In this document: positions 10,813-54,098 of the stretch, one piece after another
Layout: the number at the start of each line of letters is the position of its first letter
Numbering within the stretch: position 1 is the stretch's first letter
DNA from: an uncultured Actinomycetes bacterium
GTDB lineage: Bacteria; Actinomycetota; Thermoleophilia; Gaiellales; JAICJC01
Direction: 5' to 3'
Length of the DNA: 64,000 bases
Assembly (NCBI GenBank): GCA_963805545.1
Contig: CAWDUU010000001.1
Coordinates: 331,051 to 395,050, forward strand
Made by a program: the position numbers and the translations under genes
Notes under the pieces: model-generated
Databases searched by the model: none
Told to the model about the DNA's origin: nothing
Seen by the model: the letters and a program-made list of their open reading frames with translations, nothing else

Positions 10813-11381
10813 CCGAGCGCATCCTCCTCGTCTCGGGCAGCACCCGCAGCGGATCCACGAACACCGCCCTCCTGCGCGCGGCCGTCGCAGCCTCCCCGCC
10901 GGGCGTCGAGGCGAGCCTGTACGAGGGGATGACGACGCTGCCGCACTTCAACCCCGACGACGACGTCGATCCGCTGCCCGCCGCCGTCGCCGACCTGCGC
11001 GCGCGAATCGCGGCCGCCGACGCCGTGCTCTTCTGCACGCCGGAGTACGCGGGGGCCCTGCCCGGCTCGTTCAAGAACCTGCTCGACTGGACGGTCGGCG
11101 GGCCCGAGATGTACGGCAAGCCGGTGGCGTGGGTGAACGCCTCCGCCTCGCCGGCCAGAGCGACGAAGGCACACGAGTCGCTCGAGACCGTCCTTCGTAC
11201 GATCCACGCCGACGTCGTCTCGGAGGCGTGCCGGCACGTCGCCGTCTCGCGCGACCGGGTCGTCGACGGGCTCGTCGCCGATCCCGCCGCGAGGGCCGGG
11301 ATCGCCGGAGTGCTGGGAACCCTCGCCGCCTACGCGCTGGCCCGGACCGAGTGGGACCCGGCGTCCGCGCGCTCCGACTGA
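10809..11381 (+). CDS. NADPH-dependent FMN reductase (start codon unclear)
   Basis: LVSGSTRSGSTN, TPEYAGALPGSFKNLLDW, GKPV motifs; no canonical start at the expected position. Confidence 0.85.
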   Translation: MAERILLVSGSTRSGSTNTALLRAAVAASPPGVEASLYEGMTTLPHFNPDDDVDPLPAAVADLRARIAAADAVLFCTPEYAGALPGSFKNLLDWTVGGPEMYGKPVAWVNASASPARATKAHESLETVLRTIHADVVSEACRHVAVSRDRVVDGLVADPAARAGIAGVLGTLAAYALARTEWDPASARSD

Positions 11382-12577
11382 AACCGCTGAAGGCAGTGCT
11401 CCGAGCAGAAGTAGTAGGTGTGGCCGGCGTGCTCGATCCGCGGCGCCTTCGCCCTGTCCACCTTCATGCCGCACACCGGGTCCGTCGCCCCGCGCCGCAT
11501 CGTGAGACCGAAGAGCGCCGCGAAGATGACGAGCCCGAGCAGGTTCAGGACGAGCTTGTAGTCGAGCCCGATGGACGCGAAGATGTCGTCGCGCGACGGG
11601 CGCGCGTCCGGCACCAGCCCGAGCAGGGTGAAGAGCCCGTCGATCACGAGCGCAGCGGCCGCCATCGTGACGAGCATCAGCGCGGTGATCCGGAGCGCGA
11701 ACGACCAGCCGTAGTACTTCTGGTACACCACGATGATCGGCAGGATGACCAGGTCGGCGAAGATGAACGCCATCACGCCGCCGAAGCTGATCCCGCCCGA
11801 CCACAGCACGGCCGCCAGCGGCACGTTGCCCACCGAGCAGACGAACGAGAGGATCGCGATCAGCGGCCCGACGATGACGTTCTCGACGGCCGCGACCGGG
11901 CCGGGGGCGTCGGCGAGAAACAGCGTGTTGAAGACGTCGTTCCCGAGGAGCCCCACGAATCCGGCGAGCAGAAAGCCGATCGTGATCTCCTTCCAGAGCA
12001 TCTGCCAGTCGCCGCGGAAGTTGTGCGCCACATCCGACCAGGCCGAGACGCTGGTCAGGCGCTCGTGCAGCGGCATCTCCGCGCCGGCCGCGTGATGCTG
12101 GTGGCCGGACTCGGCCTCCTGGGCGTGGCGGCGCGCCGCCTCCTCGAGGCCCGGCGAGACGAAGGCCCGCAGCAGGAGCGTCATGAGCGCGATCATCACG
12201 ATCCCGCCCAGGTACTCCGCCAGCGCGAACTGCCAGCCGATCAGGATCCACAGGACGAGACCGAGCTCCCAGACCAGGTTCGTCGAGGCGAACTGGAATG
12301 CAAGCGCAGAGGCGGCCGACGCGCCCTTCTGGAAGAGCGACTTGCCGATCGCGATGGCCGCGTAGGAGCAGGACGAGGACGCCGCGCCGAGGCCGGTGGC
12401 CCAGAGGAGCGGCCGCGGCCCGCTGCCCGAGAGCGCCGACTCGATCCGCCGGCGCGGCACCCAGGCCTGCACGATCGCCGAGATGGCGAACCCGAGCACG
12501 AGCGCCCACCACACCTCCCACGCCATCAGGAAGGCGTCCTTCAGCGCGGTGCCGACCTGCGAGACGACGTCGCTCAT
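11330..12577 (-). CDS. DUF318/ArsP-type permease with C-terminal YHS domain
   Basis: GAASSSCSYAA, FVCSVGNVPLAA, multiple TM helices; DPVCGMKV...YYFCSEHC. Confidence 0.88.
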   Translation of the reverse strand: MSDVVSQVGTALKDAFLMAWEVWWALVLGFAISAIVQAWVPRRRIESALSGSGPRPLLWATGLGAASSSCSYAAIAIGKSLFQKGASAASALAFQFASTNLVWELGLVLWILIGWQFALAEYLGGIVMIALMTLLLRAFVSPGLEEAARRHAQEAESGHQHHAAGAEMPLHERLTSVSAWSDVAHNFRGDWQMLWKEITIGFLLAGFVGLLGNDVFNTLFLADAPGPVAAVENVIVGPLIAILSFVCSVGNVPLAAVLWSGGISFGGVMAFIFADLVILPIIVVYQKYYGWSFALRITALMLVTMAAAALVIDGLFTLLGLVPDARPSRDDIFASIGLDYKLVLNLLGLVIFAALFGLTMRRGATDPVCGMKVDRAKAPRIEHAGHTYYFCSEHCLQRFQSERADAGSHSVRASA

Positions 12578-12912
12578 CCGGCATCCGCCTCGAGCGCGCC
12601 GAGCAGCGAGCGGCCCTTGCCGGTGAGGGCGTACATGGTCATCTTCCCCTCGCGCCGCGAACGGACGACCCCCTGCGCCTTGAGCGCCTTCATGTGGTGC
12701 GAGACCAGGTTCTGGGGCCGCTCGACGATCCACGACAGGTCGCACACGCACAGCTCGTGGCCGTCGCGGAGCGCGAGGGCAAGGGACAGGCGGGTCGGCT
12801 CGCCGAGCGCGCGGTAGCCGCCGGCCAGCCGCTCGGCGTCGTCGGGCGACGGGCGGGCGGCGCGCAGGCGCTCCCCCTGGGCGGCGTCGATGTGCAGGAG
12901 CTCGCCGAACAT
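12574..12912 (-). CDS. ArsR/SmtB family metalloregulator
   Basis: ALGEPTRL...ELCVCDL...VSHHMKALK..G.V...REGKMTMY; TAGGGT -10 6 nt before ATG. Confidence 0.92.
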   Translation of the reverse strand: MFGELLHIDAAQGERLRAARPSPDDAERLAGGYRALGEPTRLSLALALRDGHELCVCDLSWIVERPQNLVSHHMKALKAQGVVRSRREGKMTMYALTGKGRSLLGALEADAG

Positions 12913-13400: not shown

Positions 13401-14021
13401 TCACGTGCTCGCCTGCCGCGAGGAGTACTCGAACGTGGCCTCGTAGCCGCACCGGCCCGAGTAGCTGAAGTCGAAGTGCTCGTTTCGGACGTCGAGCTCC
13501 TCGGCCACGACCTCGCGGCCCGTGCGGTGATGGCCGGGGATGATGCAGGTCACCGGGCTCTGGGTGTCGTGGGGCGCGGCGATGCGGACCGCCACGTTCG
13601 CGCCGGCCCGGAACCATCCCCGGCCGGGCGTGTGATCGATCTCGATCCGGCAGGGCACGACCGCCAGCAGGCGGCTCGGCTTGAACGCCCACGGGAACTG
13701 GCTGAGCGGCGTGCCACCGAGGCGTCCGGTGAAGACGTCCTCGAGCACGGCCCGCTGCCGGTCATCCGCGCGCTCGTCGAGGTAGAGCACCCACGACCAG
13801 GGCGAGCCCGGCTCGTCGTCGCTGTACCAGACGGCGAGCACCACGCACAGGTCAGACACGTCGACGCCGTCGACGGCTCCCTCGGAGATCCGCCACGAGA
13901 GCGCGCCCTCGCACCTGCCGTAGGTCGACCGCCCTCCCTGCTTCCCGTCGATCCGCCGGCACGGGCAGATCGCGTCGCAGTTACACACCTCGAGGTAGGT
14001 GCCCGAGATCTGCCAGGTCAC
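13401..14021 (-). CDS. DUF1326 domain protein
   Basis: WQISGTYLEVCNCDAICPC; coupled to the upstream gene by a GTGA overlap. Confidence 0.88.
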   Translation of the reverse strand: MTWQISGTYLEVCNCDAICPCRRIDGKQGGRSTYGRCEGALSWRISEGAVDGVDVSDLCVVLAVWYSDDEPGSPWSWVLYLDERADDRQRAVLEDVFTGRLGGTPLSQFPWAFKPSRLLAVVPCRIEIDHTPGRGWFRAGANVAVRIAAPHDTQSPVTCIIPGHHRTGREVVAEELDVRNEHFDFSYSGRCGYEATFEYSSRQAST

Positions 14022-14773
14022 ATCGGCTCCATCGTCATCGGCGACCGGTGAAGGCCCGGGACGAGCCCCGGATGCGACGGTGCCAGCAGTCCCAGCGCGA
14101 CGAGTGCGACGCCGGCCGCGAGCGCCACCAGCCGGCCGTGGCGCCACACCTTCTCGAGGGTGACCACGACGGTGAAGGCGGCCATCCAGCGCAGGTCCAT
14201 CACGCCGAGCGCGACCAGCGCGAGCATGAGCGTCCAGCAGCAGCCGACGCAGTAGGCGCCGTGGTGGAGCCCGGCGCGGACGTGCCGCAGGCGGCCGCGG
14301 TAGTTCCCGGCGTGCATCAGCAGGTGAAGCGGCGAGCGGCAGACCGCGAGGCAGCGGTCCTTGAGCGGGCTCAACTGGTAGGCGCCCGCGGCGACGAGCA
14401 GCGCGGCGCCGGTCCAGGTCGCCGCCGTCGGGCTGCGGTCGGCCAGCCGTTCGGCCGCCAGGCTGAGGAGGAGGGCGACCGCGCCGAACGCGGCCCATGC
14501 CGCCAGGTAGCCGCCGGCCAGGCCGAGCCCGCGGGCGGCTCTCCCCGCTCCCTCGCCGACGTAGAGCGCGCCCGTGGGAGCCAGCGCGGGCAGCATCATC
14601 GCCGCCATCATCACCACCCACAGGCCGAGGAAGGCCGCGGCGCCGAGCCCCATCGTCCCCGGGGCGGACTCCATCCCGCCCGCCTGTGCCGCGACGACAA
14701 CCCAGGCGACCGCCGCCGCGGCGAGGAGGCTCGCGGCGACCGGCACGGCTGAGGGAGCGGCGCGGAAGGTCAT
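14018..14773 (-). CDS. DUF2182 predicted metal-binding membrane protein
   Basis: WVVMMAAMMLP, YQLSPLKDRCLAVCRSP, GAYCVGCCW, GVMDLRWM. Confidence 0.92.
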   Translation of the reverse strand: MTFRAAPSAVPVAASLLAAAAVAWVVVAAQAGGMESAPGTMGLGAAAFLGLWVVMMAAMMLPALAPTGALYVGEGAGRAARGLGLAGGYLAAWAAFGAVALLLSLAAERLADRSPTAATWTGAALLVAAGAYQLSPLKDRCLAVCRSPLHLLMHAGNYRGRLRHVRAGLHHGAYCVGCCWTLMLALVALGVMDLRWMAAFTVVVTLEKVWRHGRLVALAAGVALVALGLLAPSHPGLVPGLHRSPMTMEPM

Positions 14774-24461: not shown

Positions 24462-24632
24462 TCAGGCGGCGGCGCGGATGGTGCGGCTCGCCTCGATCTC
24501 GCGCAGAAGCTCGGCGAGCTTGCACTCGAGGTCGTTGGGCGAGCGTGCCGGGTAGCCGTGCTGCCACTGGCCCGTGGTCTCGGCGACCCGGATGCAGTAC
24601 ATCAGCGTCTGGATGTCACGCTTGTCGAGCAT
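24462..24632 (-). CDS. 56-aa hypothetical protein
   Basis: MLDKRDIQTLMYC...IRAAA; nearly all codons end in G/C. Confidence 0.6.
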   Translation of the reverse strand: MLDKRDIQTLMYCIRVAETTGQWQHGYPARSPNDLECKLAELLREIEASRTIRAAA

Positions 24633-24726
24633 CGCGGTGTCCAACGTCGGCGTTCGACACGGGCCCTGCCATCCCCTGCTTGGGGTATTTGCCCCCGCCG
24701 CGACACCCGATATAGTGCCCGCGGCC

Positions 24727-25245
24727 ATGATCAAGGTTCTCGTCGCCGGGCTCATCGGAACCGTTGCGGGTGTGGTCGCGATGATCGTGGTTATCGTGCT
24801 GGCCGGCACGACGACGAGCGGCGCATCGAGCGTCGGGCTGGGCGCCCTGCCGCTCTCGACCGCCTCGCTCACGGGCGGGGCGACCTCGACGCCGACCTCC
24901 ACTCCGCCGCCGACCAGCGGCGGCGGGACGTCCACCGGTGGAGCGACGGGGAACGCCGACAACGGCAAGACGATCTTCACCGGGAGCGCCGGTTGCGGCG
25001 GCTGCCACGCGCTGGCCGCGGCCGGGACCAGCGGCGCCGTCGGCCCCGCGCTCGACGACCTGAGCGGCGACGCCCAGAAGGCCGGCGAGCCGCTCGATGC
25101 CTTCATCAAGTCGTCGATCGTCGACCCCGGCGCGTACGTGCCGTCGGGCTATCAGGACGGCGTCATGCCGACGAACTTCGGCACGACGCTCTCCGCGACC
25201 GACATCGACGACCTCGTGGCGTTCATCTCCGCCTCCCAGAAGTAG
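24727..25245 (+). CDS. Membrane-anchored monoheme cytochrome c
   Basis: N-terminal TM helix, T/G-rich linker, CGGCH, GPAL, VMP axial Met. Confidence 0.92.
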   Translation: MIKVLVAGLIGTVAGVVAMIVVIVLAGTTTSGASSVGLGALPLSTASLTGGATSTPTSTPPPTSGGGTSTGGATGNADNGKTIFTGSAGCGGCHALAAAGTSGAVGPALDDLSGDAQKAGEPLDAFIKSSIVDPGAYVPSGYQDGVMPTNFGTTLSATDIDDLVAFISASQK

Positions 25246-26872: not shown

Positions 26873-26876
26873 GGAA

Positions 26877-26978
26877 CGCGGGGGAACCCACGGTTCCCCC
26901 GCGGGCCCCGTCCTCAACGGGTGGCGAAGCGTGGTGCGCGCGAGGCGAAGAACGCGGTCTTCGCCGTCGCCACGACCG
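26877..26978 (+). repeat. Double-hairpin extragenic element, copy 1
   Basis: CGCGGGGGAACC-CAC-GGTTCCCCCGCG and GGCGAAGA-ACGCGG-TCTTCGCC; homologous to 42283-42386 (inverted). Confidence 0.85.
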
Positions 26979-27000
26979 TTTGCTCGAACGCTGCGACCGG

Positions 27001-27203
27001 CACTTGTCGTCCACGTGTGACGACATTCGGCGGTTTTCGCGGCACAGGCGTGACGGGCTGCGCCGGTTCTTCATCCGTCGATCACCCCGCCGTCGCGAGG
27101 CGCTCCGTACAACCGCCAATTGGCGGATCCCAGGGGAACCGCCAGTTGCCGTCCACATGTGACGACACTCGGCGTGTCCCGGGACACTCGCGTGACAGCC
27201 TGC
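27001..27203 (+). repeat. Two 61-bp degenerate direct repeats
   Basis: 27001-27061 vs 27143-27203, ungapped, 47/61 identical by manual count; internal TGTCGTC/GACGACA palindrome. Confidence 0.75.
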
Positions 27204-27249
27204 AACAGGCGAGGATCAGATGCGGGGCCTCGTTGGTATCGTCGAACGC

Positions 27250-27741
27250 ATGACGAGGTTCTGGAGCAGATGGCTTCACCGGCGCACGCCGAGCGTTGCC
27301 GTCGACGCGCTCCCGGGCCACGAGAGCCTGCGTCGAATGATCGCGGACGGGCATGGGGCCGGCTATGAAGCAGTCGAGTCGCTTGCCGAGGCGCGGGCAC
27401 GGGAGGGCTTCGCGGTTGTCATGCAGGGCGATGACGGCGGGTCGATTTACCTGACCTGTCCAGCCGCTGCAATCCGCTGTGACGAAGCAACGCTCCAGCA
27501 TCTCCTCGAGGACCTCGACGCGCGCTGCTGGAACGACCGTGACTCCGCCCGGCTCTTCTACGAGCGGCTTCCGGTTGGATCCAGGGTGGCGGGTGGCACA
27601 GGCGGTGGCCTCGTCACCGAGGGAGTGTGGCTCCACCCGCGGATCGAGAAACAAGGGCTTCAGGCACAGGTCCAGGCGATCATCGCCGGGGAGCGAGACC
27701 GGATCGACCAGCCCCGCCGCCCCGGTACAGTGATCCCATGA
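27250..27741 (+). CDS. Hypothetical protein
   Basis: GDDGGSIYLTCPA...RLFYERLPVG...GGTGGG...WLHP; ATGA overlap with the next gene. Confidence 0.65.
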   Translation: MTRFWSRWLHRRTPSVAVDALPGHESLRRMIADGHGAGYEAVESLAEARAREGFAVVMQGDDGGSIYLTCPAAAIRCDEATLQHLLEDLDARCWNDRDSARLFYERLPVGSRVAGGTGGGLVTEGVWLHPRIEKQGLQAQVQAIIAGERDRIDQPRRPGTVIP

Positions 27742-29037
27742 AGGCTCCCGAGCGCGCCGACTACTCGATGACCGCCAGCCCCGGCTCGCCGCTGCCCGTC
27801 GCCGTGCGGGCGGAGGGGTGCTGGATCGAGGACGCCGATGGCCGCCGCTACCTGGACGCGTGCGGCGGGGCGATGGTGATGCTGCTCGGCCATTGCCACC
27901 CGCGGGTGGTGGAAGCGCTGCGCGCGCAGGCCGGCGAGCTGACGTTCACGTATCGCTTCTCGTTCCGGAACGAGCCGATGCTCGACCTCGCCGAGCGGAT
28001 CGCGGCGCGCGCGCCGGGCGACCTGGAGTGGTGCTTCTTCAACTCGTCGGGCTCCGAGGCCAACGAGTCGGCGCTGCACCTCGCGGTGCTCTACTGGGAG
28101 CTCCTCGGGAAGGCCGGCAAGGTCGAGTTCCTCTCGCGCGTCACCTCCTACCACGGCTCCACCATGGGCGCGCTCTCGCTCTCCGGCTCCCGCTGGCGGG
28201 CACCGTTCGAGCTGCTCCTTCGCAAGTACGCCGTCGTGCCCAACAGCGATACCGCGGAGGAGGGTGCCGCGGCGCTGGAGGCCGCAATCCTCTCGCGCGG
28301 GGCCGAGCACGTGGCCGCCTTCGTGGTCGAGCCGGTGACCGGCTCGTCGGGCGCGGCTGTGCCGCTTCCGGGCGGCTACCTGGAGGCCGTGCGCGAGGTG
28401 TGCGACCGCCACGAGGTGCTCCTCGTCGCCGACGAGGTCATCACCGCCTTCGGCCGCACCGGGCGCTGGTTCGCGGTCGAGCACTGGAATGCCCTCCCCG
28501 ACGTCATCACCTTCGGCAAGGGGCTGGGCGGCGGCATCGTCCCGCTCTCCGGGATGGTCGCATCGCGGCGGCTGCGTGAGGTCGTCGAGAGCGCGCCCGG
28601 CGGCTTCTCGTACGGCCACACCTTCTCGGGCAACCCGCTCGGCTGCGCCGTCGGCTCGGCCGTCATCGACGTGATCGAGGAGGACGGGCTCGTGGAGGCC
28701 GCCGAGTCGCGCGGGGCGCTCGCTTCGCGCCAGGCTCGAGGAGCTGCGCGGCCGCCACCCGATCGTCCACTCCCTGCGCGGCCGCGGCCTGCTCCAGGGG
28801 GTCGAGCTGCGCGCGCCGGACGGCGCCCGCTTCCCGGCCTCCGCCGGCGTCTGCGGCCGCGTCGCCGCCGCCGCCAAGGACGAGGGCCTCATGATCTACT
28901 CCTGTCCGACGCCGGTCGGCACCGAGCACATGGACGCGCTCATGCTGGCCCCTCCGCTCATCCTGACCGACGCCGAGGTCGACGAGATCGCCGCCCGCCT
29001 CGACACCGCCCTCGCGCGGGTCGAGTCGTCGCTGTAG
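27738..29037 (+). CDS. Class III PLP aminotransferase, frameshift near 28720
   Basis: YLDACGG, SGSEANE, SYHGST, DEVITAFGRTG, FGKGLGGG; the C-terminus (RGRGLL...LAPPL) is in the +1 frame. Confidence 0.88.
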
Positions 29038-29082
29038 GCGGCTGCCAGTCCGTCCGGTCCGGCTTCTAGCCTTGGTCGCCGG

Positions 29083-29964
29083 ATGCCGGTGGTCGCAGTT
29101 CCGATCGCGCAGCTTCTCGGCGCGCTTCTCGCCCTCGCCGCGATCGCGAAGATCCGGCGGTTCGGTGCGTGGCGGGCCGCGCTCGACGGCTACCGCCTCG
29201 TGCCGTGGCGGGGCGTTGTCGCGGTTGCCGTCCCCGCCGCCGAGCTCGCCGTCGCCGGAGGCCTCCTCGCCGGCCTCGCCGTCTCCGCCTGGTGCGCCGC
29301 GGCGCTGCTCTCGGTCTTCACGCTCGTCCTGGCCGCCGAGCTCGCGCGCGGCTCGGCGCCGCCCGCATGCGCGTGCCTGCCGTGGTCGGGCCCCCCGGGC
29401 CGCCTGACGCTCGTCCGGAACGCCGTCCTCGTCGCCGCGGCGCTCGCCGCCGCCGAGGGCGCGACACCTCGCCTCGGGCGCGGATTCTGGGAGGCGTCCT
29501 ACGCCGTCCTCTGGCTGGCCGTCGCCGGGCTCGTGGTGCTCGTGCTCTCGCTCTACCGGCAGGTGGGCGTCCTGCACCTGCGGCTGGGGCCGCGCGGGGC
29601 GCTCGAGGAGGAGGGCGAGGGGCCCGAGCTCGGCGCGGCGATCGACCACCCGGCGGTGCCCGCGGGAAGGGCGGCGCTGGTCGCGTTCACGTCGGCCGGC
29701 TGCCCTGTGTGCCATCAGATCGTGCCGGGCCTGCGCGTGCTCGAGCGCGATCCGGCGCTTCGGGTCGTCCACGCCGCCTACGAGGACGCGGAGGGGCCGG
29801 AGCTGCACGCCGCCTTCGACGTCCCGGGGACGCCGTACGCGGTGTACCTCGACGCGGCAAGCGTCGTTCGGGCCAAGGGCACCGTGAACACGCTCGAGCA
29901 GCTCGAGAGCCTGGTCGCCGCCGGCGGCAGCCGCGCCCAGGAGGCGGTCGGCGATGTGGCGTGA
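29083..29964 (+). CDS. MauE-MauD fusion (methylamine-utilisation membrane domain + thioredoxin fold)
   Basis: AIAKIR...AELAVA...ACAC; LYRQVGVLHLRLGPRGAL...GP; CPVC; PYAV...AKGTVNTLEQLESL. Confidence 0.88.
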   Translation: MPVVAVPIAQLLGALLALAAIAKIRRFGAWRAALDGYRLVPWRGVVAVAVPAAELAVAGGLLAGLAVSAWCAAALLSVFTLVLAAELARGSAPPACACLPWSGPPGRLTLVRNAVLVAAALAAAEGATPRLGRGFWEASYAVLWLAVAGLVVLVLSLYRQVGVLHLRLGPRGALEEEGEGPELGAAIDHPAVPAGRAALVAFTSAGCPVCHQIVPGLRVLERDPALRVVHAAYEDAEGPELHAAFDVPGTPYAVYLDAASVVRAKGTVNTLEQLESLVAAGGSRAQEAVGDVA

Positions 29965-30539
29965 CGGCGAGGACATGGCCCGCGACGTCGCCTCCCGGCA
30001 CAGCCGCTCCGGGTTCCTGAGCCGGATCGGCGCGCCGATCATCGCGTGGCTGGCCGGGCCGCTCGCCGGCGCGTCGTCGCTGGGGCCCGAGAGCACCCGC
30101 TACTACGGCTTCTGCGGCCACACGTTCACCACCAAGCCGTGCCCGCACCCGTTCCCGAAGCTGCCCCGCATCGACCGCCACGGGTATCCGCTGCGGCCGT
30201 CCGACGGGCATCCGGTCGACAACCTCGGCCGGCCCGTCGACGCGTCGGGGTTCGCGCTCGACAGCGCCGGCAACCGCCGCGTCGGGCCCGACGGGCGAAC
30301 CGGTGCCGCGCGCGCCGCGCACGCGCCCCTGCCAGGACTGGGTGCCGGACATCTACGGCTTCCACACCCGCTTCGACGGCGCCTGGTACCGCTGCTGCAA
30401 CAACCAGATCAGAAAGCTGGTCGACTGCTGCGCCCACCACAACCGCCGTATCAACGGCGACGCGGCGCTGGTCGGCTACTGCTTCCACGGCCGCAAGGTG
30501 TTCTGCGTCCTCTACTACGACACGAAGGTGCCGTGCTGA
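29954..30539 (+). CDS. Cys-rich MauA-like (amine dehydrogenase small subunit-like) exported protein, frameshift at ~30294
   Basis: Tat-like SRSGFL leader; 10 Cys; GAWYRCC...LVDCC...GYCF...VFC. Removing one G from GACGGGCGAA joins the two ORFs. Confidence 0.7.
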
Positions 30540-32008
30540 GGCGGCTCGCGGCGGCGGCCGGCGCGGGCGGCGCGGGCCTGGCGCTCGGCGTCGGGGTCGC
30601 GCCCGATCCCGGAGCGGCGATCGCCGCCTGCGCGCTCCTCGCGGGGGTGTCCGGCGCCTGGTCGCCCTGAGGGCTGGCCGTGGCCGAGACGGTCGCCCCC
30701 GTCGTGCACGGGGTGAGGAGATGGCTGGTGGCGGTGGCGGCGTTCGCGATGGGATCCGTCGCCGCGGGTGCGGCCCTGGGCTGGGGCGTCGGCTGGGCGG
30801 CCGGGCGGGCCGGCGGCGGAGGCGCGCACGGCGCCTGGGCGGCCGCGGGCATCGCAGCGGCCTACGCCGCCCGCGAGGCAGGGCTCCTGCGCCTGCCGGT
30901 GCCGCAGCTTCGCCGCCAGGTGCCCCAGCGCTGGCGCGAGGTGCTGCCGCTGCCGGCGACCGCGTTCCTCTACGGCGCCGGCCTCGGCATCGGATTCGTC
31001 ACCTACGTGCCGGTGGCGACGCTCGTGGCGGTGACCGCGGCGATCGCACTCGCCGACCCCGGCGCCGGGATGGCCGCCCTCGCGGCGTTCGGGGCCGGGC
31101 GCGCGGCCGTCCTCGTCGCGGCCACGGCCGGCCTTCACGACTGGGACGAGGCGGCCGACCGCTTCGAGCACGCCGGGAGCTGGCTGCGGGAGCGGGGCGG
31201 GGCGCTCCGCACGGCCAACGCCGGCGCCATGGCCGCGCTGGCGGGCGTGCTCGCCGCCACGGCGACGCCGGCGGCGGCGGCCGCCGCGGTGCAGATCGAC
31301 CTCGGCTCGCGCCACGTCGCCGACCCGTCCGCCGGGCCGGCCGGCGTGCTGGCGTGGGATCAGGTCGCGGGCGGCGTCGTGCAGGGCAGGCTGCGCGTGA
31401 ACGGCGTCGTGAACGACCTTCCCGGAAAGACGCCCGACGTCGACGGCGCCCGGGTCGTCGTCGACACCGGCTCCGCGTTCCAGATCATCGACACGGGGAC
31501 GCTCGCCGTCATGCGCACCCTCCAGCTCAAGGGCACCGAGCCGGCGCTCTTCGACCACTGGCTGGTCTACCGGCGGGTCACCGGCAGGCGGCGGCTCATC
31601 CTCTTCGACCTGGGGACGAACCAGTCGAAGGTGATCGCAAGGGTCAAGATGCGAAGCGACCTGGGCGAGCCCGACATCTCGGGCAGGCGGGTCGTCTACT
31701 CGGTGACCGGCCACGGACGCAGCTCCATCCGGCTCTACCGCATCGACCTGGGAGTCACGAAGCGGATCGCGCAGACGCCGATCTGGTCGTACAGCCACGT
31801 GTCCGTCAGCGGCGACACCGTGGTGTACGTGCGCCAGGCATCGAGCGGCGCAGCCGTGTGGCGGCTCCACCTGCCGAGCGGCCGGGTGGCGCGCGTCCAC
31901 CGCGTCGCCGGCGGCACCGGACACGCGCTCTGGGAGACGGCCACGAACGGCTCGTCCATCTGGTTCACGGTCTACACCAGGTCGCAGTCGCTCATCTGGC
32001 ATGCTTGA
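30533..32008 (+). CDS. MauF homologue with in-frame UGA (putative Sec, WSPUG) fused to a C-terminal beta-propeller
   Basis: GTG 30533 overlaps the upstream stop; GAWSP-TGA(30668-30670)-GL; RRQVP, FLYGAGLGIGFVTYV; repeated P-x-x-x-G-x-x-VVY blades. Confidence 0.75.
30693..30716 (+). promoter_or_regulatory. Putative bacterial SECIS hairpin
   Basis: TCGC-C-CCCGT [CGTGC] ACGGG-GTGA: 9 bp with one bulge; loop begins 33 nt after the UGA and has G at position 2. Confidence 0.55.
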
Positions 32009-32011
32009 GGC

Positions 32012-33445
32012 GTGGCAACCGCGCCTCCGACCTCGGGCGAGCTGCGCGCCGCCCTCGAGCAGGCCGCCGACTGGTGCGCGTCGTACCTCGACCGGGTCGG
32101 CGACCTGCCCGTGCTGGCCCGGGTCGAGCCGGGCGAGATCGCGGCTGCCCTGCCCGAGCACGCGCCGGTGGCGGGCGAGCCGCTGGCCGACATCCTGGCC
32201 GACGTCGACCGCGTCCTGATCCCCGGCATCACGCACTGGAACCACCCGGGCTTCATGGCCTACTTCGGGATCTCCGGCTCGCCGCCGGGCATCCTCGGCG
32301 AGACGGTGGCGGCCGCGCTCAACGTGAACGCGATGCTGTGGCGCACGTCGCCGGCCGCGACCGAGCTCGAGCAGCGGGTGCTGCGCTGGGTCGCCGAGCT
32401 GACCGGCCTTCCGGCCGGCTGGTTCGGCGAGATCACCGACACGGCGTCGGCCTCGACGATGTACGCGCTCGCCGCCGCCCGCGAGGCGGCCGGGCTCGAC
32501 ATCCGCACCCGCGGGATGGCCGGCCGGGCCGACCTGCCGCCGCTTCGCATGTACACGTCCGACCAGGCCCACTCGTCGGTCGAGAAGGCCTGCATCGCGC
32601 TCGGGATCGGCCAGGAGGGGCTGTGCAAGATCCCGTCCGACGCCGCCTTCCGGATGCGGGCCGACCTGCTGGCCGAGGCCGTCGCCGCCGACGTCGCCGC
32701 GGGCGTGCGGCCGCTCGCGGTCGTGGCCACGGTCGGGACGACCTCGACGACGAGCATCGACCCCGTCCCCGAGATCGCCGACGTGTGCGCCCGCCACGGC
32801 ATGTGGCTGCACGTCGACGCCGCCTACGGCGGCTCCGCGGCGGTCGTGCCCGAGATGCGCCACGTCCTGGCCGGGTGCGAGCGGGCCGACTCGGTCGTCG
32901 TGAACCCGCACAAGTGGCTCTTCACGCCGGTCGACTGCAGCCTGCTCTACACGGCCCGGCCCGCCGACCTGAAGGCGGCGTTCTCGCTCGTCCCCGCCTA
33001 CCTGGAGACGCCGGAGGACGGCGGCGTCGTGAACCTCATGGACTACGGACTCTCGCTCGGCCGCCGCTTCCGCGCGCTCAAGCTGTGGATGGTGATCCGG
33101 GCCTACGGCGCCGAGGGGCTCGCCGCGCTCATCTCGGGCCATATCGAGCTCGCCCGGCGGCTGGCGGCCGCGATCGAGGCGGAGCCGGGCTGGGAGCTGC
33201 TCGCCCCGGTGCCGTTCTCGACCGTCTGCTTCCGCCGCCACCCGGACGGGGTCGACGACGAGGCGGAGCTGCGCCGCCTGAACGAGGCGATCATCGAGCA
33301 CGTGAACGCCGACGGCCGGGCGTTCGTCTCGCACACCGACCTCGGCGGGCGCCACGCGATCCGGGTGGCGATCGGCAACATGGCGACGACCGCCGAGCAC
33401 GTCGACACGGCCTGGGAGCTCATGCGCGAGGCCGTCGCCGGCTGA
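32012..33445 (+). CDS. Group II PLP decarboxylase, aromatic-L-amino-acid decarboxylase-like
   Basis: PGITHWNHPGFMAYF, SPAATELE, SDQAHSS, HVDAAYGG, NPHKW, GRRFRALKLW. Confidence 0.92.
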   Translation: MATAPPTSGELRAALEQAADWCASYLDRVGDLPVLARVEPGEIAAALPEHAPVAGEPLADILADVDRVLIPGITHWNHPGFMAYFGISGSPPGILGETVAAALNVNAMLWRTSPAATELEQRVLRWVAELTGLPAGWFGEITDTASASTMYALAAAREAAGLDIRTRGMAGRADLPPLRMYTSDQAHSSVEKACIALGIGQEGLCKIPSDAAFRMRADLLAEAVAADVAAGVRPLAVVATVGTTSTTSIDPVPEIADVCARHGMWLHVDAAYGGSAAVVPEMRHVLAGCERADSVVVNPHKWLFTPVDCSLLYTARPADLKAAFSLVPAYLETPEDGGVVNLMDYGLSLGRRFRALKLWMVIRAYGAEGLAALISGHIELARRLAAAIEAEPGWELLAPVPFSTVCFRRHPDGVDDEAELRRLNEAIIEHVNADGRAFVSHTDLGGRHAIRVAIGNMATTAEHVDTAWELMREAVAG

Positions 33446-46926: not shown

Positions 46927-47551
46927 GGATGTTCAGCGCCGTCAGGCGGGGCGGGGACTCGTCGAGCGCGACGACTGCGCAGTGGCAGTGGTCGAGCCAC
47001 ATCCGCCGGTGAAGGCCCGGCGCGACACCCAGCAGGACCGCGGTCACGAGCACGCGCGCCAGCGAGCCGTGCGTGGCCGCGACCGTCGTCCCGGGCAGGT
47101 CGCGCACGTCGTCGAAGAACGACCGGGCCCGGGCCACCGCCGACTCGTAGGTCTCGGCGCCGTCGGGCCAGACGGGGTCGCTCTCGGATCGCCAGCGGTG
47201 GAACTCGGCGGCCAGCGGGCCGGCCTCGATCTCGGCGCCGGTAAGACCCTCGAACGGCCCGGCGTCGATCTCGCGCAGGCGCTCGTCGATCGTCACCGGG
47301 GGGCGGCCGGGCGCCGCGGCCGCGATCGCCTCGCCGGTCGACCGCGCACGCCGAAGCGGCGAGCAGACGACGCGCTCGACCCGGGCCGCCGCCAGCCCGC
47401 GGGCCGCGGCGGCCGCCTGCTCGACGCCCTCGGGGGAGAGCTCGACGTCGGTCCGCGTCGTGAAGCGGCCCTCGGCGTTCCAGACCGTCGCCCCGTGCCG
47501 CACGAGCACGAGGAGCCGGTCAGGCTGCGGGGAGCCAGAGGCGCTGGTCAT
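46904..47551 (-). CDS. Histidine phosphatase (phosphoglycerate mutase family)
   Basis: LVRHGAT, SPLRRA, LREIDAG, ATHG. Confidence 0.92.
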   Translation of the reverse strand: MTSASGSPQPDRLLVLVRHGATVWNAEGRFTTRTDVELSPEGVEQAAAAARGLAAARVERVVCSPLRRARSTGEAIAAAAPGRPPVTIDERLREIDAGPFEGLTGAEIEAGPLAAEFHRWRSESDPVWPDGAETYESAVARARSFFDDVRDLPGTTVAATHGSLARVLVTAVLLGVAPGLHRRMWLDHCHCAVVALDESPPRLTALNIPARNIGV

Positions 47552-48407
47552 CGCCGATCGGGCCCTGCCGGACGGCCCCGGCGCCGGCCAGCCGCTCGAG
47601 CTCGGCGAGCGTCCCGGCGAGGTCGGGCGGATCGTTCCGGCCGCGGCACACCTGCGCCACCTCGACCGTTGTCAGGCCCTGGGGATACTCGGCGAGGAGC
47701 TCGGCCGGTTCGGGCTGGGAGCGGCGCGGGAGCTGCGGCGCCAGGTTCGCAACGCACACGTCGTAGGCCTCGAACGACTGGAACCCGCCCGCGACGAGCG
47801 TGCGGCCGTCGAAGCGGAACACCAGACTCGGCGCCGTGAAGCGGGCGCCGCCGTCGAAGATCGCGGCCCGGTCCTGGGCGATCGCCGGGTCGCCGATGCC
47901 GGCGGCGGAGCGGGCCTCGGCGCGGTCGGCCTGGTAGGCGTCCTCGACGGCCGGATCCGCCAGGTCGCGGATCAGCCGCTCGGGGTCGAGCCCGGGGACC
48001 GAGGCGCCGAGCTCGGCGAACGCCCCGTCCTCGTCGAGCAGGTGAAGCGACGTGAACCACGCCATGCGGACGGCACGCAGCATCCCGCGCTGGGCGGCAT
48101 CACCCTGGAGGCCGGCCGCCTTCACGGCGCGGCACATCCTCCCCGACGCGACCAGCCGGCCCCGGGGCGTGGTGAGAAGCGGCATCCCGAAGGTCTCCGA
48201 GAACCAGCGCCAGCCGTCCACCCGCGAGGCGGGCGTCGTGCCGCGCCGTTCCAGGTCGGCCGTGTCCTCGCGCAGCCCGATCGTGACCAGCCGCCAGGCG
48301 AGCCCGTCCCCGTAGCGCCACTCGAGCGCGCGCATGAACGGCTCGGCCGAGTAGGCCCACGGGCAGCTCGGATCGGTGTAGTGGACGACCTCCACCTGGT
48401 CCGCCAT
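47520..48407 (-). CDS. DsbA/FrnE-like thioredoxin-fold protein
   Basis: YTDPSCPWAYSAEP; PSLVF cis-Pro region. Confidence 0.8.
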   Translation of the reverse strand: MADQVEVVHYTDPSCPWAYSAEPFMRALEWRYGDGLAWRLVTIGLREDTADLERRGTTPASRVDGWRWFSETFGMPLLTTPRGRLVASGRMCRAVKAAGLQGDAAQRGMLRAVRMAWFTSLHLLDEDGAFAELGASVPGLDPERLIRDLADPAVEDAYQADRAEARSAAGIGDPAIAQDRAAIFDGGARFTAPSLVFRFDGRTLVAGGFQSFEAYDVCVANLAPQLPRRSQPEPAELLAEYPQGLTTVEVAQVCRGRNDPPDLAGTLAELERLAGAGAVRQGPIGDDQRLWLPAA

Positions 48408-48598
48408 CGCGGGAAGCGTAGATGCGAAAACCGGACGGCGTCGCCGCCGCCAGGAGCGGCGGCGGCGAGCGGCCGTTGTGCCCACTGATCCTGCGGAAAT
48501 GCCTCCCCCGGGATCCCGGCGGCGATCATACAGGGTTTTCCAATAACCGGGAAAGTCGAACGTGCGATGTGAGCGCGGTCACGTGCCACAATCCCGGC

Positions 48599-50104: not shown

Positions 50105-51333
50105 CCGAGCCGGCCGAGGCGCGCGCCGCCCGGATCCTCGCCCGGCTCGACAGCCTGTTCGAGATCGGGCGCGCGGCCGGCACGAACCGGCCCGGCCTGG
50201 GGGAGGGCGAGCAGCGCGCGCACGACCTCGTCGCCGGCTGGATGCGCGACGCGGGCCTCGACGTGAGCGTCGATCGGGCCGGCAACCTGTTCGGGCGGGT
50301 CGCCGGGTCCGATCCGTCGCTGCCGGAGGTCTGGACCGGCTCGCATCTCGACACGCCGCCCGACGGCGGCCGCTTCGACGGCGCGCTCGGGGTCGTCGCC
50401 GGGCTCGACGCCGCGGAGGCGATCGGGCGCTCGGGAGGCGCGCGGCGGCCGGTCGCGGTCGTCGCGTTCCGGCTCGAGGAGGGGCCGCGGTTCGGCCGCG
50501 GCGTCTTCGGCTCGCGAGCGGTCGTCGGCGAGCTCGAAGACGACGAGGCCGACCTCCTCGATCCCGGCGGGATCACGCTCGGGCAGGCGTTCGCGGCGCT
50601 CGGCCTGGGCGAGGCGCTGCCCGACGGCCCGACGGTCGATCGCCACCCGGCGTGCTTCGTCGAGGCCCACATCGAGCAGGGGCCGTCGCTCGCCGCCCGC
50701 GGCGCGCCGCTGGGAGTCGTGACGTCGATCGCGGGGATGGCCGGGATCGAGCTCGTGTTCACGGGCCGCCGCGGCCATGCGGGCACGGTGCCGATGGAGC
50801 TCCGCGCCGACGCCCTCGCCGCCGCGGCCGGCTTCGTCCGCACCGCCCACGACGTCGCCCGCGGGCTGCCCGGCGCCGTCGCCACCATCGGCCGGCTCGA
50901 CGTCTCGCCGGGCGCAACGAACACGATCCCGGGGCGGGTCACCGCCTTCGCCGACCTGCGCGCTCCTGCCGCCGCCACGCTCCAGGCGCTGGTTGACGGC
51001 GCGACGGCCGCCGCCGAGGCGGCCGCGGTCGAGACGGGATGCCGGCTCCAGGTGGTGCCGCGCTGGCGCTACGAGCCGGTGGCGATGCACCCCGGGCCGT
51101 CCGCCGCCCTGCGCCGGGCCGTCGCCGCGGCCGGCTTCGACCTCGCCGAGCTGCCCTCCGGCGCGGGCCACGACGCCGGCATCCTGGCCGAGGCGGGGAT
51201 CCCGTCGGCGATGCTCTTCGTCCGAAGCGATGCCGGGGGCGTGAGCCATGCTCCCGAGGAGTCGACCGGAGCCGACGCGGTGGCGGCGGCCGTGACCGTC
51301 CTCGACGCGGCGATCCGCGAGCTCGCGGCATGA
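50101..51333 (+). CDS. M20 Zn hydrolase, allantoate amidohydrolase/N-carbamoyl-amino-acid hydrolase family
   Basis: GSHLDT, GRFDGALGV, EEG.RF, EAHIEQGP, GHAGT.PM, SGAGHDA, SH.PEE. Confidence 0.92.
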   Translation: MTEPAEARAARILARLDSLFEIGRAAGTNRPGLGEGEQRAHDLVAGWMRDAGLDVSVDRAGNLFGRVAGSDPSLPEVWTGSHLDTPPDGGRFDGALGVVAGLDAAEAIGRSGGARRPVAVVAFRLEEGPRFGRGVFGSRAVVGELEDDEADLLDPGGITLGQAFAALGLGEALPDGPTVDRHPACFVEAHIEQGPSLAARGAPLGVVTSIAGMAGIELVFTGRRGHAGTVPMELRADALAAAAGFVRTAHDVARGLPGAVATIGRLDVSPGATNTIPGRVTAFADLRAPAAATLQALVDGATAAAEAAAVETGCRLQVVPRWRYEPVAMHPGPSAALRRAVAAAGFDLAELPSGAGHDAGILAEAGIPSAMLFVRSDAGGVSHAPEESTGADAVAAAVTVLDAAIRELAA

Positions 51334-52439
51334 CCGACTGGAAGCGGCTCGCGCGGCCGTCGCTCCGCGACCTCACGCCGTATCACCCCGGTCTCACCCG
51401 CGACGAGTTGAAGGACCGGCTCGGCCTCGAGACCCTGGAGCCGCTGAACTGGAACGAGGATCTCTTCGGACCGCCCCGGGAGGTGCTCGACGCGGCCGCG
51501 GTCGAGCTCCAGAACGCGCCGTTCTACCCGGAGCGGGCCTACGCCGACTTCCGCGATGCCGCGGCGCGGGCGCTGGACGTCCCGGCCGAGTGCGTCGTAC
51601 CCGCGCACGGCGCCCAGGCGCTCGTCGCGGCGCTCGCGGCGACGTTCCTCGAGCCCGGCCGCACCGCGGTCGTGCCGGCGGTCACCTACGGCCTCTACGC
51701 GCACGTCTCGGCCGCGGCCGGGGCGGCGGTGGTGCGGGCGCCGATGCCGGGCATCGACATCGACCTCGACGCGATCGCGGCCCGGGCCCGTTCCGAGCGC
51801 GCGAACCTGGTGTGGGTGTGCGACCCGAACAACCCGACCGGCTCGCTGATCCAGCCGGCGGCCTGGCGGGCCTTCCTGGACGCGCTGCCGGAGGACTGCG
51901 TCGTCGTCGCCGACGAGGCCTACATGGACTTCGCCGACCCCGCCGCCCGCGCCGACCGGGCCCGTGACGTGGCCGAGGGCCGGCCGGTGGTCGTCATCCG
52001 CTCGTTCTCGAAGTCGTTCGGGCTCGCCGGCCTGCGCCTCGGCGTCGCCATCGCCGACCCCGCGGTCGCGCGCCTGCTCGACGTGGTGCAGGAGCCGTTC
52101 AACGTGAACCGGGCGGCGCTCGCGGCGGGGCGGGCCGCTGTCAGCCTCGACGGCTTCCTCGACCGGCGGCGGGCGGAGGTGGCCGCGGCGCGCGACGCCC
52201 TGCGCGACGCCCTCGACCGGCGCGGGCTCGTGAGCCATCCGTCGCAGGCCAACTTCGTGCTGGTCGAGCTCGGCGTCGACGACGGCCCGGTGTGCGACGC
52301 GCTTCTGGCCCGCGGCGTCCTCGTCCGGCCGGGGCGGAGCGTGGGGCTGCCGGGGACGGCCCGGGTGACCGTGGCCCCGGAGCCGCTCATGGAGCGGGTT
52401 GCGGAGATGATCGCCGAGGAGGCCGGACGGTCGAGATGA
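51330..52439 (+). CDS. Class I/II PLP aminotransferase, HisC-like
   Basis: LNWNE, DPNNPTG, DEAY, RSFSKSFGLAGLRLG, ANFVL. Confidence 0.88.
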   Translation: MTDWKRLARPSLRDLTPYHPGLTRDELKDRLGLETLEPLNWNEDLFGPPREVLDAAAVELQNAPFYPERAYADFRDAAARALDVPAECVVPAHGAQALVAALAATFLEPGRTAVVPAVTYGLYAHVSAAAGAAVVRAPMPGIDIDLDAIAARARSERANLVWVCDPNNPTGSLIQPAAWRAFLDALPEDCVVVADEAYMDFADPAARADRARDVAEGRPVVVIRSFSKSFGLAGLRLGVAIADPAVARLLDVVQEPFNVNRAALAAGRAAVSLDGFLDRRRAEVAAARDALRDALDRRGLVSHPSQANFVLVELGVDDGPVCDALLARGVLVRPGRSVGLPGTARVTVAPEPLMERVAEMIAEEAGRSR

Positions 52440-52466
52440 GCATGCCGTATGATGGCGTACCAATCC

Positions 52467-54098
52467 ATGCTCGTCGCTGACAGGATCGCCGGGCTGCTTC
52501 AGCGGGAAGGCGCGGAGCACGTCGTCGGGTTCCCCGAGAACCGGCTCGTGAACTCGGCCGCGGCCCTCGGGATGCGGCCGATCATCACCCGCACCGAGCG
52601 GGTCGCCGTCAACATCGCCGACGGCTTCGCGCGGGTCACGAACGGCGAGCGCCTCCTGCCCTGCGTCATGCAGTACGGCCCGGGCGCCGAGGCGGCGTTC
52701 GGCGCCGTCGCGCAGGCGTACGGCGACCGCAGCCCCATCCTGCTCGTTCCGACCGAGTACGCCGTGCCCGAGCAGGACGCCGGCCCGAGCTTCCGGAGCG
52801 AGGATGCCTACCGCCCGATCACCCGGTTCGCCGCCACCGTGAACACCCCCGAGGCGGGTCCGCAGGCGTTCCGGCGCGCGCTCCACGCCGTGCGCGGCGC
52901 CCGCCGGGGCCCGGCGCTCGTGGCGGTCGCAAACGACGTGATGAACGGCGACGCGGGCGACGCCGACTGGGATCTGCGACCGGTGACGCCCCGGCTCTCC
53001 CTGGCCGCGCCCGCCGACGTGGCCGAGGCGGCCCGGCGGCTGGCGGCGGCCCGCCATCCGGTGATCCTCGCCGGGCAGGGCGTGCTCTACGCCGGCGCCA
53101 CCACCGAGCTGGTCGAGCTCGCGGAGCTTGCGGGCGCCCCGGTCGCGACGACGCTGAACGGCAAGAGCGCCTTCCCCGAGGACCACCCGCTCTCGCTCGG
53201 CACCGCGGGCCGGACGCGGCCGGCGCCGGTCGACGAGCACTACGCGCGGGCCGACCTGATCCTGGGCGTCGGGACAAGTCTCACCCGCTCGCTCTACATC
53301 ACGCCGCTCCCGGCCGGCGCCGCCCTGGGCCAGATCGTGAACGACCCCGGCGACCTGGCGACCGGCTACGACGTCGACTTCGCCTGTATCGGGGACGCCC
53401 GGCTCGTGCTGGGCCAGCTTCTTGCCGAGCTGCGCGGCTCGGGGGAGGCGCAGCGGCCGTCGCCCGCCGCGGGCCTCGCGGCCTCCCGGGCGGCGTTCGC
53501 CGAGCGGTGGATGCCGAGCCTCACCTCCGACGCCGCCCCGCTCAGCCCCTACCGGCTGGTGTGGGAGCTGATGCAGGTCGTCGACCGCTCGCGCACCGTC
53601 GTCACCCACGACGCCGGCCATCCCCGCGACCAGATCGTGCCGTTCTACGAGACGGTCGTGCCGCGCGGCTATCTCGGCTGGGGCAAGTCGACCCAGCTCG
53701 GCACCGGCTTCGGCCTCACGCTCGGCGCGAAGCTCGCGCGGCCCGACTGGCTGGCGGTCAACGTCATGGGCGACGCCGCGTTCGGCATGATCGGCATGGA
53801 CTTCGAGACCGCCGTCCGGGCCGGCATCCCGATCCTCACGATCGTGATGAACAACGGCATCATGGGCGGCTACGGCACGTGGATGCCCGACGCCGTCGAG
53901 CGGTTCGAGTCGAGCAGCCTGGGCGGCGACTACGCGGCGGTCGCGCGCGCCCTGGGCGGCCACGCCGAGCACGTGCGTGAGCCGGCCGAGCTGCGGCCGG
54001 CGCTCGAGCGGGCCATCGCGAGCACCGTCGACGGCCGGGCCGCGCTGCTCGAGGTGATGACCCACGAGGAGCCGAACCTGCCGGAGGGAGCCGTCTAG
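52467..54098 (+). CDS. ThDP-dependent enzyme of unknown specificity
   Basis: ERVAVNIADGFAR, GPG, GKSAF, GDAAFGM...NNG. Confidence 0.88.
   Translation: MLVADRIAGLLQREGAEHVVGFPENRLVNSAAALGMRPIITRTERVAVNIADGFARVTNGERLLPCVMQYGPGAEAAFGAVAQAYGDRSPILLVPTEYAVPEQDAGPSFRSEDAYRPITRFAATVNTPEAGPQAFRRALHAVRGARRGPALVAVANDVMNGDAGDADWDLRPVTPRLSLAAPADVAEAARRLAAARHPVILAGQGVLYAGATTELVELAELAGAPVATTLNGKSAFPEDHPLSLGTAGRTRPAPVDEHYARADLILGVGTSLTRSLYITPLPAGAALGQIVNDPGDLATGYDVDFACIGDARLVLGQLLAELRGSGEAQRPSPAAGLAASRAAFAERWMPSLTSDAAPLSPYRLVWELMQVVDRSRTVVTHDAGHPRDQIVPFYETVVPRGYLGWGKSTQLGTGFGLTLGAKLARPDWLAVNVMGDAAFGMIGMDFETAVRAGIPILTIVMNNGIMGGYGTWMPDAVERFESSSLGGDYAAVARALGGHAEHVREPAELRPALERAIASTVDGRAALLEVMTHEEPNLPEGAV

Follow-up and report, generated by a model that had tools for sequence, protein, structure and literature searches.

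The 64,000-nucleotide window analysed here (positions 331,051 to 395,050 of contig CAWDUU010000001.1, from an uncultured Actinomycetes bacterium; about 73% GC) carries a row of genes on its plus strand (29083-33445), the first three of which form a conserved trio. Gene 1 encodes a MauE-MauD fusion, gene 2 an exported ten-cysteine protein, and gene 3 a MauF-like membrane protein with a predicted selenocysteine (Sec) and a C-terminal beta-propeller. We conclude that the trio is probably a self-contained, extracytoplasmic, quinone-linked thiol-redox maturation cassette that is dedicated to a new cysteine-rich exported cargo. Judged from its sequences, the cassette appears to be derived from, or to have common ancestry with, the mauF/mauE/mauD accessory half of the methylamine dehydrogenase (MADH) cluster, with a different cargo. 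The evidence consists of the homologies of genes 1 and 3 to Mau proteins, the natural pair of Sec and Cys forms of the MauF homologue together with a hairpin, the co-conservation of the three genes, and the alternative fusions in which the same modules occur. A sequence-only reading of the row had described a rewired mau-like operon of four genes without MauB or MauG; an amine dehydrogenase of the type that carries tryptophan tryptophylquinone (TTQ) is not supported.

A fused thiol oxidase and thioredoxin carrier

The N-terminal part of gene 1 (residues 5-123) matches the MauE family PF07291 with 65.5 bits against a cut-off of 27 (E 7e-18) and carries the motif C96-A97-C98. The C-terminal part is a membrane-anchored MauD-like thioredoxin domain. 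Its residues 135-280 align with MauD of Paracoccus denitrificans at 35% identity over 178 aa (BLASTP, E 3e-27), and the alignment takes in the membrane anchor, the RQVGxLH motif and the CPVC motifs of the two proteins, which fall on each other. Because the match to TIGR02661 (1e-19, 70.7 bits) lies under the equivalog cut-off of 188.6, we regard this domain as a homologue, not an equivalog, of the MauD of MADH clusters. The MauE and MauD matches together bear out the fusion that had been read from the letters.

MauE proteins substitute for DsbB in E. coli, and their CXC motif is essential and the experimentally defined active site; fusions to thioredoxin folds account for 8.2% of MauE entries, and MauA is present in merely 10.2% of MauE-bearing species, so that MauE without MauA is common (bioRxiv 10.64898/2026.03.05.709764). 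For this last reason, the lack of MauB and MauG does not in itself amount to the rewiring of an amine dehydrogenase that the sequence-only reading saw in it.

Gene 1 appears to be an oxidase-plus-carrier fusion of a type already described. It shares with MauE as a DsbB-like enzyme, and with VKOR-thioredoxin fusions, a four-helix CXC membrane oxidase joined to a thioredoxin-fold partner, and it differs in having LPW after the CXC motif where FG is common. The cassette also couples MauE with a homologue of MauF and with a cargo gene dedicated to it, whereas the work on MauE is silent on MauF and on selenium (bioRxiv 10.64898/2026.03.05.709764).

A MauF homologue fused to a beta-propeller

The mechanical open reading frame (ORF) of gene 3 starts at 30680, and the frame is open from the GTG at 30533 with a single in-frame TGA. 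The 45 codons 5' of this TGA have a GC content of 0.96 at their third positions. A profile of the membrane domain aligns with MauF of P. denitrificans PD1222 over 188 columns (hhalign 98.6%, E 8.5e-16), and the window protein matches P. denitrificans MauF at 30% over 159 aa (BLASTP, E 2e-8). Pfam and NCBIfam return nothing for the membrane part, which is uninformative because genuine MauF also matches no model in either library. The MauF-like domain fused to a propeller that had been proposed earlier is therefore real.

We used a Cys-form homologue, P0168, for a structure model (AlphaFold, predicted local distance difference test (pLDDT) score of 85). The model has about seven membrane helices, with the conserved Cys at a break in the first, and a beta-propeller from residue 226. 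The Sec or Cys stands next to a conserved acidic residue (ET of SMVET). In a Foldseek search against PDB all matches were to the propeller, with BamB and peptidase propellers at the top (E about 1e-6).

Two other identities were rejected. The propeller is not MauB (hhalign probability 0.6%). Some JGI records name gene 3 homologues 'cytochrome c biogenesis protein CcdA', a membership that we discard because nine family members gave no match to DsbD (PF02683) or DsbD_2 (PF13386) at E<=10 and the domain has only one conserved redox residue. An hhalign comparison with a sequence taken as Bacillus subtilis CcdA aligned only 8 columns around the SPC motif (0.7%). Gene 3 does share with CcdA/DsbD a polytopic membrane domain and a Ser/Thr-Pro-Cys motif at an apparent helix break, but CcdA/DsbD have two membrane-embedded Cys.

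An in-frame UGA predicted to encode selenocysteine

The in-frame UGA of gene 3 lies in the context GAWSP-U-GLAVAETVAPVVHGVR (family pattern GAWSP-*-G[LF]..ET), and hhalign places it on the Cys of TWSPCGYS in MauF. Of the loci fetched, 58 have TGA at this codon and 93 have a Cys codon (TGC or TGT). UGA is an ordinary stop in the source genome, since it terminates each of the four cluster genes.

A hairpin resembling a selenocysteine insertion sequence (SECIS) follows the codon. All 38 distinct UGA-form sequences form 5-6 of its 6 core pairs, whereas 23 Cys forms make 0-3 of them. Three of the pairs show compensatory changes: the closing pair alternates between CG and UA (18:18), another between UA and CG (23:7), and in locus L066 a CG becomes GC, although this replaces a Gly of the protein by Arg. 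The covariation score was reached by none of 500 shuffles. The hairpin also lies 3' of the UGA in a lineage in which MauF is fused to MauE. Its loop G is about 33 nt 3' of the UGA, within the 16-37 nt range that bSECISearch accepts. Folded as a single sequence, 30660-30740 has a z-score of 0.04, which says nothing alone. An earlier candidate hairpin directly after the UGA (alignment columns 11-28) was rejected as a SECIS element, being neither conserved in the window clade nor covarying.

The alignment of UGA with Cys and the restriction of the hairpin to UGA forms support a predicted selenium dependence of the MauF-like component in part of the family, in agreement with the sequence-only reading. 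Bacterial selenoproteins such as the formate dehydrogenase FdhF likewise have a UGA aligned with Cys, a stem-loop about 30 nt downstream with G and U in the apical loop, and a presumed redox-active site. Gene 3 differs from FdhF-type selenoproteins in that its predicted Sec would apparently lie within a membrane helix, in a polytopic protein of an oxidative-folding-type system. The literature searched, which does not cover all journals, contained nothing relevant on MauF or MauE together with selenium. All the related records fetched cut gene 3 at the UGA into products of 45 aa and 442 aa; in annotation the gene should be joined across this codon.

A ten-cysteine exported protein with a MauA-type leader

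Gene 2 had been read as a single ORF, but in the window it is split by a frameshift, passing from frame 2 to frame 0 near 30284-30289. The window carries a net +1 at 30283-30287 relative to 7/7 close relatives compared, which read GGGCC or GGCCC (five bases), and deletion of one base from the GGGCCC run yields a 194-aa product with ten Cys. The merged protein has >1100 full-length homologues of 190-200 aa, the closest being 91% identical and 194 aa long. The frame runs unbroken in every relative, and a programmed frameshift was rejected for this reason. Many of the close relatives are long-read metagenome-assembled genomes (MAGs), and the relative protein P0031 carries several frame breaks. 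A homopolymer-length or base-calling error is more likely than decay, since gene 2 is fully conserved in both halves and its neighbours are intact.

Ten Cys are invariant in the family, among them two CC doublets and the C-terminal residue, and so are the motifs FCGH and RxNGD. Its only invariant Trp is W137, W121 being variable, and Tyr stands where a by-eye alignment puts the second TTQ Trp of MauA. No Pfam or NCBIfam family matches the window protein, and there is no match to the light subunits of MADH or aromatic amine dehydrogenase (AADH; TIGR02659, PF02975). The family profile found no PDB sequence at E<=10, again including none to MADH or AADH. The AlphaFold model has a pLDDT of about 85 over residues 53-187; its best Foldseek match in PDB has an E of 0.47, and no MADH or AADH chain is among the 50 matches shown, small disulfide-rich folds being hard cases for both programs. 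A search of 1.84 billion representative proteins with gene 2 brought up nothing beyond members of the family, fragments and a pair of giant repeat proteins, with no bridge to a known family.

The two giant proteins, P0309 (3819 aa) and P0361 (1148 aa), contain 12-15 tandem stretches that match residues 72-121 of the gene 2 family (pattern PLRPxDGxPVDNLGRxVDxxGYPxDxxGxRLxGPDG). By this match, the mature gene 2 protein may have an N-terminal half built of a repeat that also occurs elsewhere, possibly forming YD/Rhs-like hairpins.

The likeness to MauA resides in the leader. The gene 2 leader aligns with one MauA precursor at an hhalign probability of 70% and with a MauA profile at 94.9% (E 4.5e-8), the profile consisting of 8 MauA sequences and one mistranslated Burkholderia row; the aligned stretch comprises the leader and the first Cys motif. 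TIGR02659 is matched by 16 of 31 family members, and in the one relative inspected the match falls in the leader. With the mistranslated row left out, the mature domain aligns with mature MauA at a probability of 0.5%. The twin-arginine motif (29990-30010) reads SRSGFL in the window and its closest relatives and RRGFL in distant members. The description of the protein as MauA-like accordingly holds for its gene position, Cys richness and leader, whereas the mature part has no likeness to MADH or AADH by sequence or fold. The sequence-only reading had staked its case on a structural similarity to the beta subunits of these enzymes, and within the limits of the tools none was found by PDB profile search, hhalign or Foldseek.

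A Thermomicrobium MauA-like protein and gene 2 both have the arrangement GAWYVCC...DCC (hhalign probability 50%, E 1.6e-4), a lead and not evidence. The Thermomicrobium roseum megaplasmid NC_011961.1 (locus L093) encodes two divergent MauA-like proteins (locus positions 7001-7444 and 11720-12172), one of them missing from the PLSDB gene table, and each gene adjoins genes for hypothetical proteins of about 400 aa. Both products end in Cys, and one has FCGH and GAWYVCC, recalling the gene 2 family.

Conservation of the trio and shuffling of its modules

A pattern scan with one genome per species found gene 2 relatives in at least 592 species genomes. The synteny check on these relatives came out in favour of the trio: gene 2 is immediately followed by a MauF-like domain in 88/88 loci and immediately preceded by a MauD-like domain in 86/88, the remaining two being cut by contig ends. 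The trio occurs in at least three unrelated genomic contexts. Neighbour clustering of 91 loci gave no further family in more than 27 of them, with noise from high-GC shadow ORFs that the filter had let through. In the flanks of the relatives, neither MauG nor a flavoprotein oxygenase nor a radical S-adenosylmethionine (SAM) enzyme recurs beside the trio. In line with what the sequence-only reading had stated for the window, a scan of 29 window ORFs and of the relatives' gene tables out to +/-8 kb, which was not exhaustive, turned up no mauB, mauG or amicyanin domain.

In another Actinomycetota lineage (loci L089-L091), a separate anchored MauD is followed by a gene 2 homologue and then by a Sec-containing MauF fused to MauE. 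This shuffling of fusions between lineages is strong evidence that the MauE, MauD, MauF and gene 2 modules act together. Two more genes flank the cluster in L089-L091 (locus positions 4330-4890 and 7125-7800), neither with a family match. The product of one is a 186-aa protein of about eight repeats of ~20 residues (GLSxDGSxxLxxxDxxGxVRAxxGL), and that of the other has 223 aa, an N-terminal hydrophobic segment and a Thr/Pro-rich tail.

The fourth gene of the row stands outside this core. Its best NCBIfam match is L-2,4-diaminobutyrate decarboxylase, far below the cut-off. A decarboxylase lies downstream of the trio in 26/88 loci, all in the window sub-clade, and is absent from 62/88. We attribute the linkage to general synteny because the sub-clade also shares upstream genes for a cytochrome c, a thiamine pyrophosphate (TPP) enzyme and an aminotransferase. 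The idea of a co-conserved four-gene operon thus survives for three genes and not for the pyridoxal phosphate (PLP)-dependent decarboxylase, which annotation should keep out of the system.

Proposed pathway and alternatives

We infer the following route. The Cys-rich gene 2 protein would be exported, and the MauD domain would insert disulfides in it. The MauE domain would then re-oxidise MauD in the way that DsbB re-oxidises DsbA, handing the electrons on to quinone in the membrane. The MauF-like domain could join this relay through its Sec or Cys at the apparent break in the first membrane helix, and its part may be that of an intermediate carrier or of an arm that corrects or reduces. The propeller may keep the cargo at the membrane, and the MauA-type leader may be a tag that addresses the cargo to the machinery.

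Several points weigh against this pathway. MauE alone replaced DsbB (bioRxiv 10.64898/2026.03.05.709764), so that disulfide formation does not demonstrably require MauF. The single redox residue of the MauF-like domain cannot form an internal disulfide as CcdA/DsbD do, which leaves the relay through it hypothetical, and membrane topology was judged from predicted helices and charge distribution only. In the window gene 2 is frameshifted, the inserted base being either an assembly error or a real inactivation. The leader SRSGFL lacks the second arginine of the twin-arginine motif, and the export route in the window sub-clade may differ for this reason. Neither selA, selB, selC nor selD is among the window ORFs scanned and no tRNA lies in the 64-kb window, the part of the source genome that was covered.

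The trio has also to be weighed against an enzymatic role. It could encode a new quinoprotein dehydrogenase, in which gene 2 is a divergent light subunit with a cross-linked aromatic quinone cofactor, the propeller is a tethered heavy subunit, and the flanking aminotransferase and decarboxylase supply the amine substrate in the window lineage. The accessory set and gene position do match the mau cluster, the gene 2 leader is of the MauA type, gene 3 has a propeller, and in the window sub-clade the trio has a class III aminotransferase on one side and an amine-forming decarboxylase on the other. Gene 2 also has invariant W137, Y138 and Y168 beside its Cys doublets and, by eye, motifs in the order of MauA (WYRCC vs YRDCC, GYCF.G vs IWCFG), to which the shared motif of the Thermomicrobium protein can be added. 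We nevertheless consider such an enzyme improbable. The mature domain resembles no MADH or AADH subunit in hhalign, in the PDB profile search or among the Foldseek matches shown, and the propeller does not resemble MauB. Gene 2 would have Tyr where TTQ has Trp108, and no cofactor-building MauG, flavoprotein oxygenase or radical-SAM enzyme recurs beside the trio. Nor is an electron acceptor of the amicyanin kind conserved: the cytochrome c gene, which precedes the trio by three genes, belongs to the sub-clade synteny only. Most loci also have no decarboxylase to provide the amine. Handling of a metal or metalloid is another candidate role, and an unlikely one in our estimate: the gene 2 protein would be a redox or metal/metalloid handler, for example a carrier of copper, selenium or sulfur, and Sec-MauF would move or load that species across the membrane. 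The ten invariant Cys, the invariant His of FCGH and the invariant C-terminal Cys would suit such a handler, as would the Sec or Cys at an apparent intramembrane helix break next to an acidic residue. Twin-arginine leaders often mark proteins that fold or receive a cofactor before export, and the window contains a copper chaperone and a YHS-domain permease, though about 15 kb off. However, no metal-binding family matched gene 2 or gene 3, no metal-transport or resistance gene is conserved beside the trio, and the tight linkage to MauE and MauD points to disulfide chemistry.

It is also rather unlikely that the cassette of the source genome is a decaying remnant, inactive here because the frameshift of gene 2 is real. 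Such decay would explain why the window differs by one base from all seven relatives compared, and why a second window-specific +1 lies in the aminotransferase gene near 28707-28720. Both insertions, however, fall in G/C runs of a sequence with 73% GC, many of the relatives are themselves long-read MAGs, and P0031 is frame-broken too; a base-calling error fits the conserved halves of gene 2 and its intact neighbours better.

We therefore retain the thiol-redox maturation cassette as the preferred reading. With more doubt than confidence, we extend it to the suggestion that the MauF family is a Sec/Cys-dependent membrane redox component that works directly with MauE, and that the MauA-type leader is a portable tag by which unrelated Cys-rich cargo is handed to MauF/MauE/MauD. 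The cargo would then be the first of a new exported, heavily cross-linked class, possibly with a new aromatic-derived cofactor, without MauG.

Relation to the mau cluster and significance

The mauFBEDACJGMN cluster of P. denitrificans (plasmid 1, locus L092) likewise has MauF, MauE and MauD homologues around a small, Cys-rich exported protein with a long twin-arginine-type leader, and the Cys of TWSPCG in its MauF is aligned with the Sec of gene 3. The cassette differs in that no MauB, MauG, amicyanin, MauJ, MauM or MauN was found with it, MauE is fused to MauD, and MauF is fused to a propeller that is not MauB and carries Sec; its hosts are Actinomycetota. MauA of P. denitrificans has 12 Cys in six disulfides and the TTQ Trp pair, whereas gene 2 has ten Cys in another spacing and no Trp pair.

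MauF has been known since the 1990s to be genetically required for MADH synthesis, and to our knowledge no activity has been assigned to it. The natural Sec/Cys switch and the MauF-MauE fusions indicate that its conserved Cys is likely catalytic, and they place MauF in the redox pathway of MauE. Gene 3 is a candidate membrane-embedded selenoprotein family in abundant soil Actinomycetota, and gene 2 represents an unannotated ten-Cys family, spread over these hundreds of species genomes, whose predicted fold is like nothing solved. Whereas the names MauE, MauD and MauF and the MauE-thioredoxin fusions are already known, four points appear to be new: the trio is linked to a new cargo family, MauF occurs fused to a propeller and to MauE, an unrelated protein has a MauA-type leader, and a MauF homologue has a predicted Sec. 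The Cys form occurs in cultured organisms (Conexibacter sp. CPCC 206217 and C. stalactiti KCTC 39840), which makes direct experiments possible.

Gene packing, upstream region and neighbouring genes

The four genes are as tightly packed on one strand as had been read from the sequence, although only three form a conserved unit and two gene models were corrected (Table 1). Genes 1 and 2 overlap by 11 nt, and genes 2 and 3 by the 7 nt GTGCTGA, whose GTG (30533) opens gene 3 and whose TGA (30537-30539) ends gene 2. A gap of 3 nt separates genes 3 and 4.

Table 1. Features of the cassette and its immediate surroundings (window coordinates).
Feature	Position	Strand	Evidence
Conserved upstream motif GTCCGTCCG	29048..29056	+	Upstream-region alignment, 15 relatives
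-10-like hexamer TAGCCT, 10 nt 5' of gene 1 ATG	29067..29072	+	Spacing kept in relatives
Gene 1, MauE (DsbB-like thiol oxidase) plus membrane-anchored MauD-like thioredoxin domain, 293 aa	29083..29964	+	PF07291, TIGR02661, BLASTP
C96-A97-C98, CXC motif of MauE domain	29368..29376	+	Sequence; between transmembrane helices TM3 and TM4 by eye
C207-P-V-C210, CXXC motif of MauD-like domain	29701..29712	+	Sequence; aligned with P. denitrificans MauD CPVC
Gene 2, exported 10-Cys protein of an uncharacterised family, MauA-type leader, 194 aa after frame repair	29954..30539	+	Homologues, leader match
GGGCCC run with one extra base, +1 frameshift in gene 2	30284..30289	+	Alignment to relatives
Gene 3, MauF-like polytopic membrane domain with one predicted Sec plus C-terminal beta-propeller, 491 aa	30533..32008	+	hhalign, BLASTP
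In-frame UGA, predicted to be read as Sec, motif GAWSP-U-G	30668..30670	+	Sec/Cys homologue pair
SECIS-like hairpin CCCCGU-CGUGC-ACGGGG, 27 nt 3' of UGA	30697..30713	+	Covariation
Beta-propeller domain of gene 3	31262..32005	+	Foldseek; TolB profile matches weak
Gene 4, group II PLP-dependent decarboxylase, neighbour outside the conserved core	32012..33445	+	PF00282 1e-97

The TAGCCT hexamer noted earlier as a -10 element is promoter-like: TAGCCT or TAGCAT stands at equal spacing in 15/15 relatives compared, in an otherwise divergent spacer. Its position would give a leaderless or near-leaderless transcript of gene 1. A scan for sigma-70 consensus promoters and terminators made no call at 29067, and Rfam has zero matches anywhere in the window. 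Farther upstream, (G)TCCGTCCG or CCGTCCG is retained in 14/15 aligned upstream regions, which range from close to about 50%-identity relatives, while the surrounding spacer diverges; L032 has a variant. The GTCCGTCCG motif may represent a -35 region or a site for a regulator.

The second window-specific net +1, seen against 6/7 relatives compared, lies in the class III aminotransferase gene that precedes the trio (27627-29037); the true C-terminus of this gene (PPLILTDAEVDEIAARLDTALARVESSL*) lies in the other frame and ends at 29037. Another ORF, encoding a cytochrome c (24574-25245), has 223 aa here against about 160 aa in relatives. Compared with several of these, the window has a net +1 close to position 24641, which could reflect either a third indel or an artefact of the start site.

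Between the TPP-enzyme and aminotransferase genes lie about 860 bp (26873-27737) that are without counterpart in seven relatives, where the two genes abut. Within this stretch a direct repeat of 66 nt occurs (26996-27061 and 27138-27203, 77% identical), both copies having an internal palindrome around CACGTG or CACATG. A 173-aa ORF (27220-27741) is without a Pfam match.

The minus strand of the window encodes an ArsP-type permease with a YHS domain (11330-12751), a PpoB2 copper chaperone (14018-14773) and a DsbA-like thioredoxin-fold protein (47520-48485), none of them near the cassette or conserved with it. About 20 kb downstream, a second pair of aminotransferase (class I/II) and TPP-enzyme genes (51039-54098, plus strand) is adjoined by a gene for a GntR/FCD regulator (54095-54913, minus strand).

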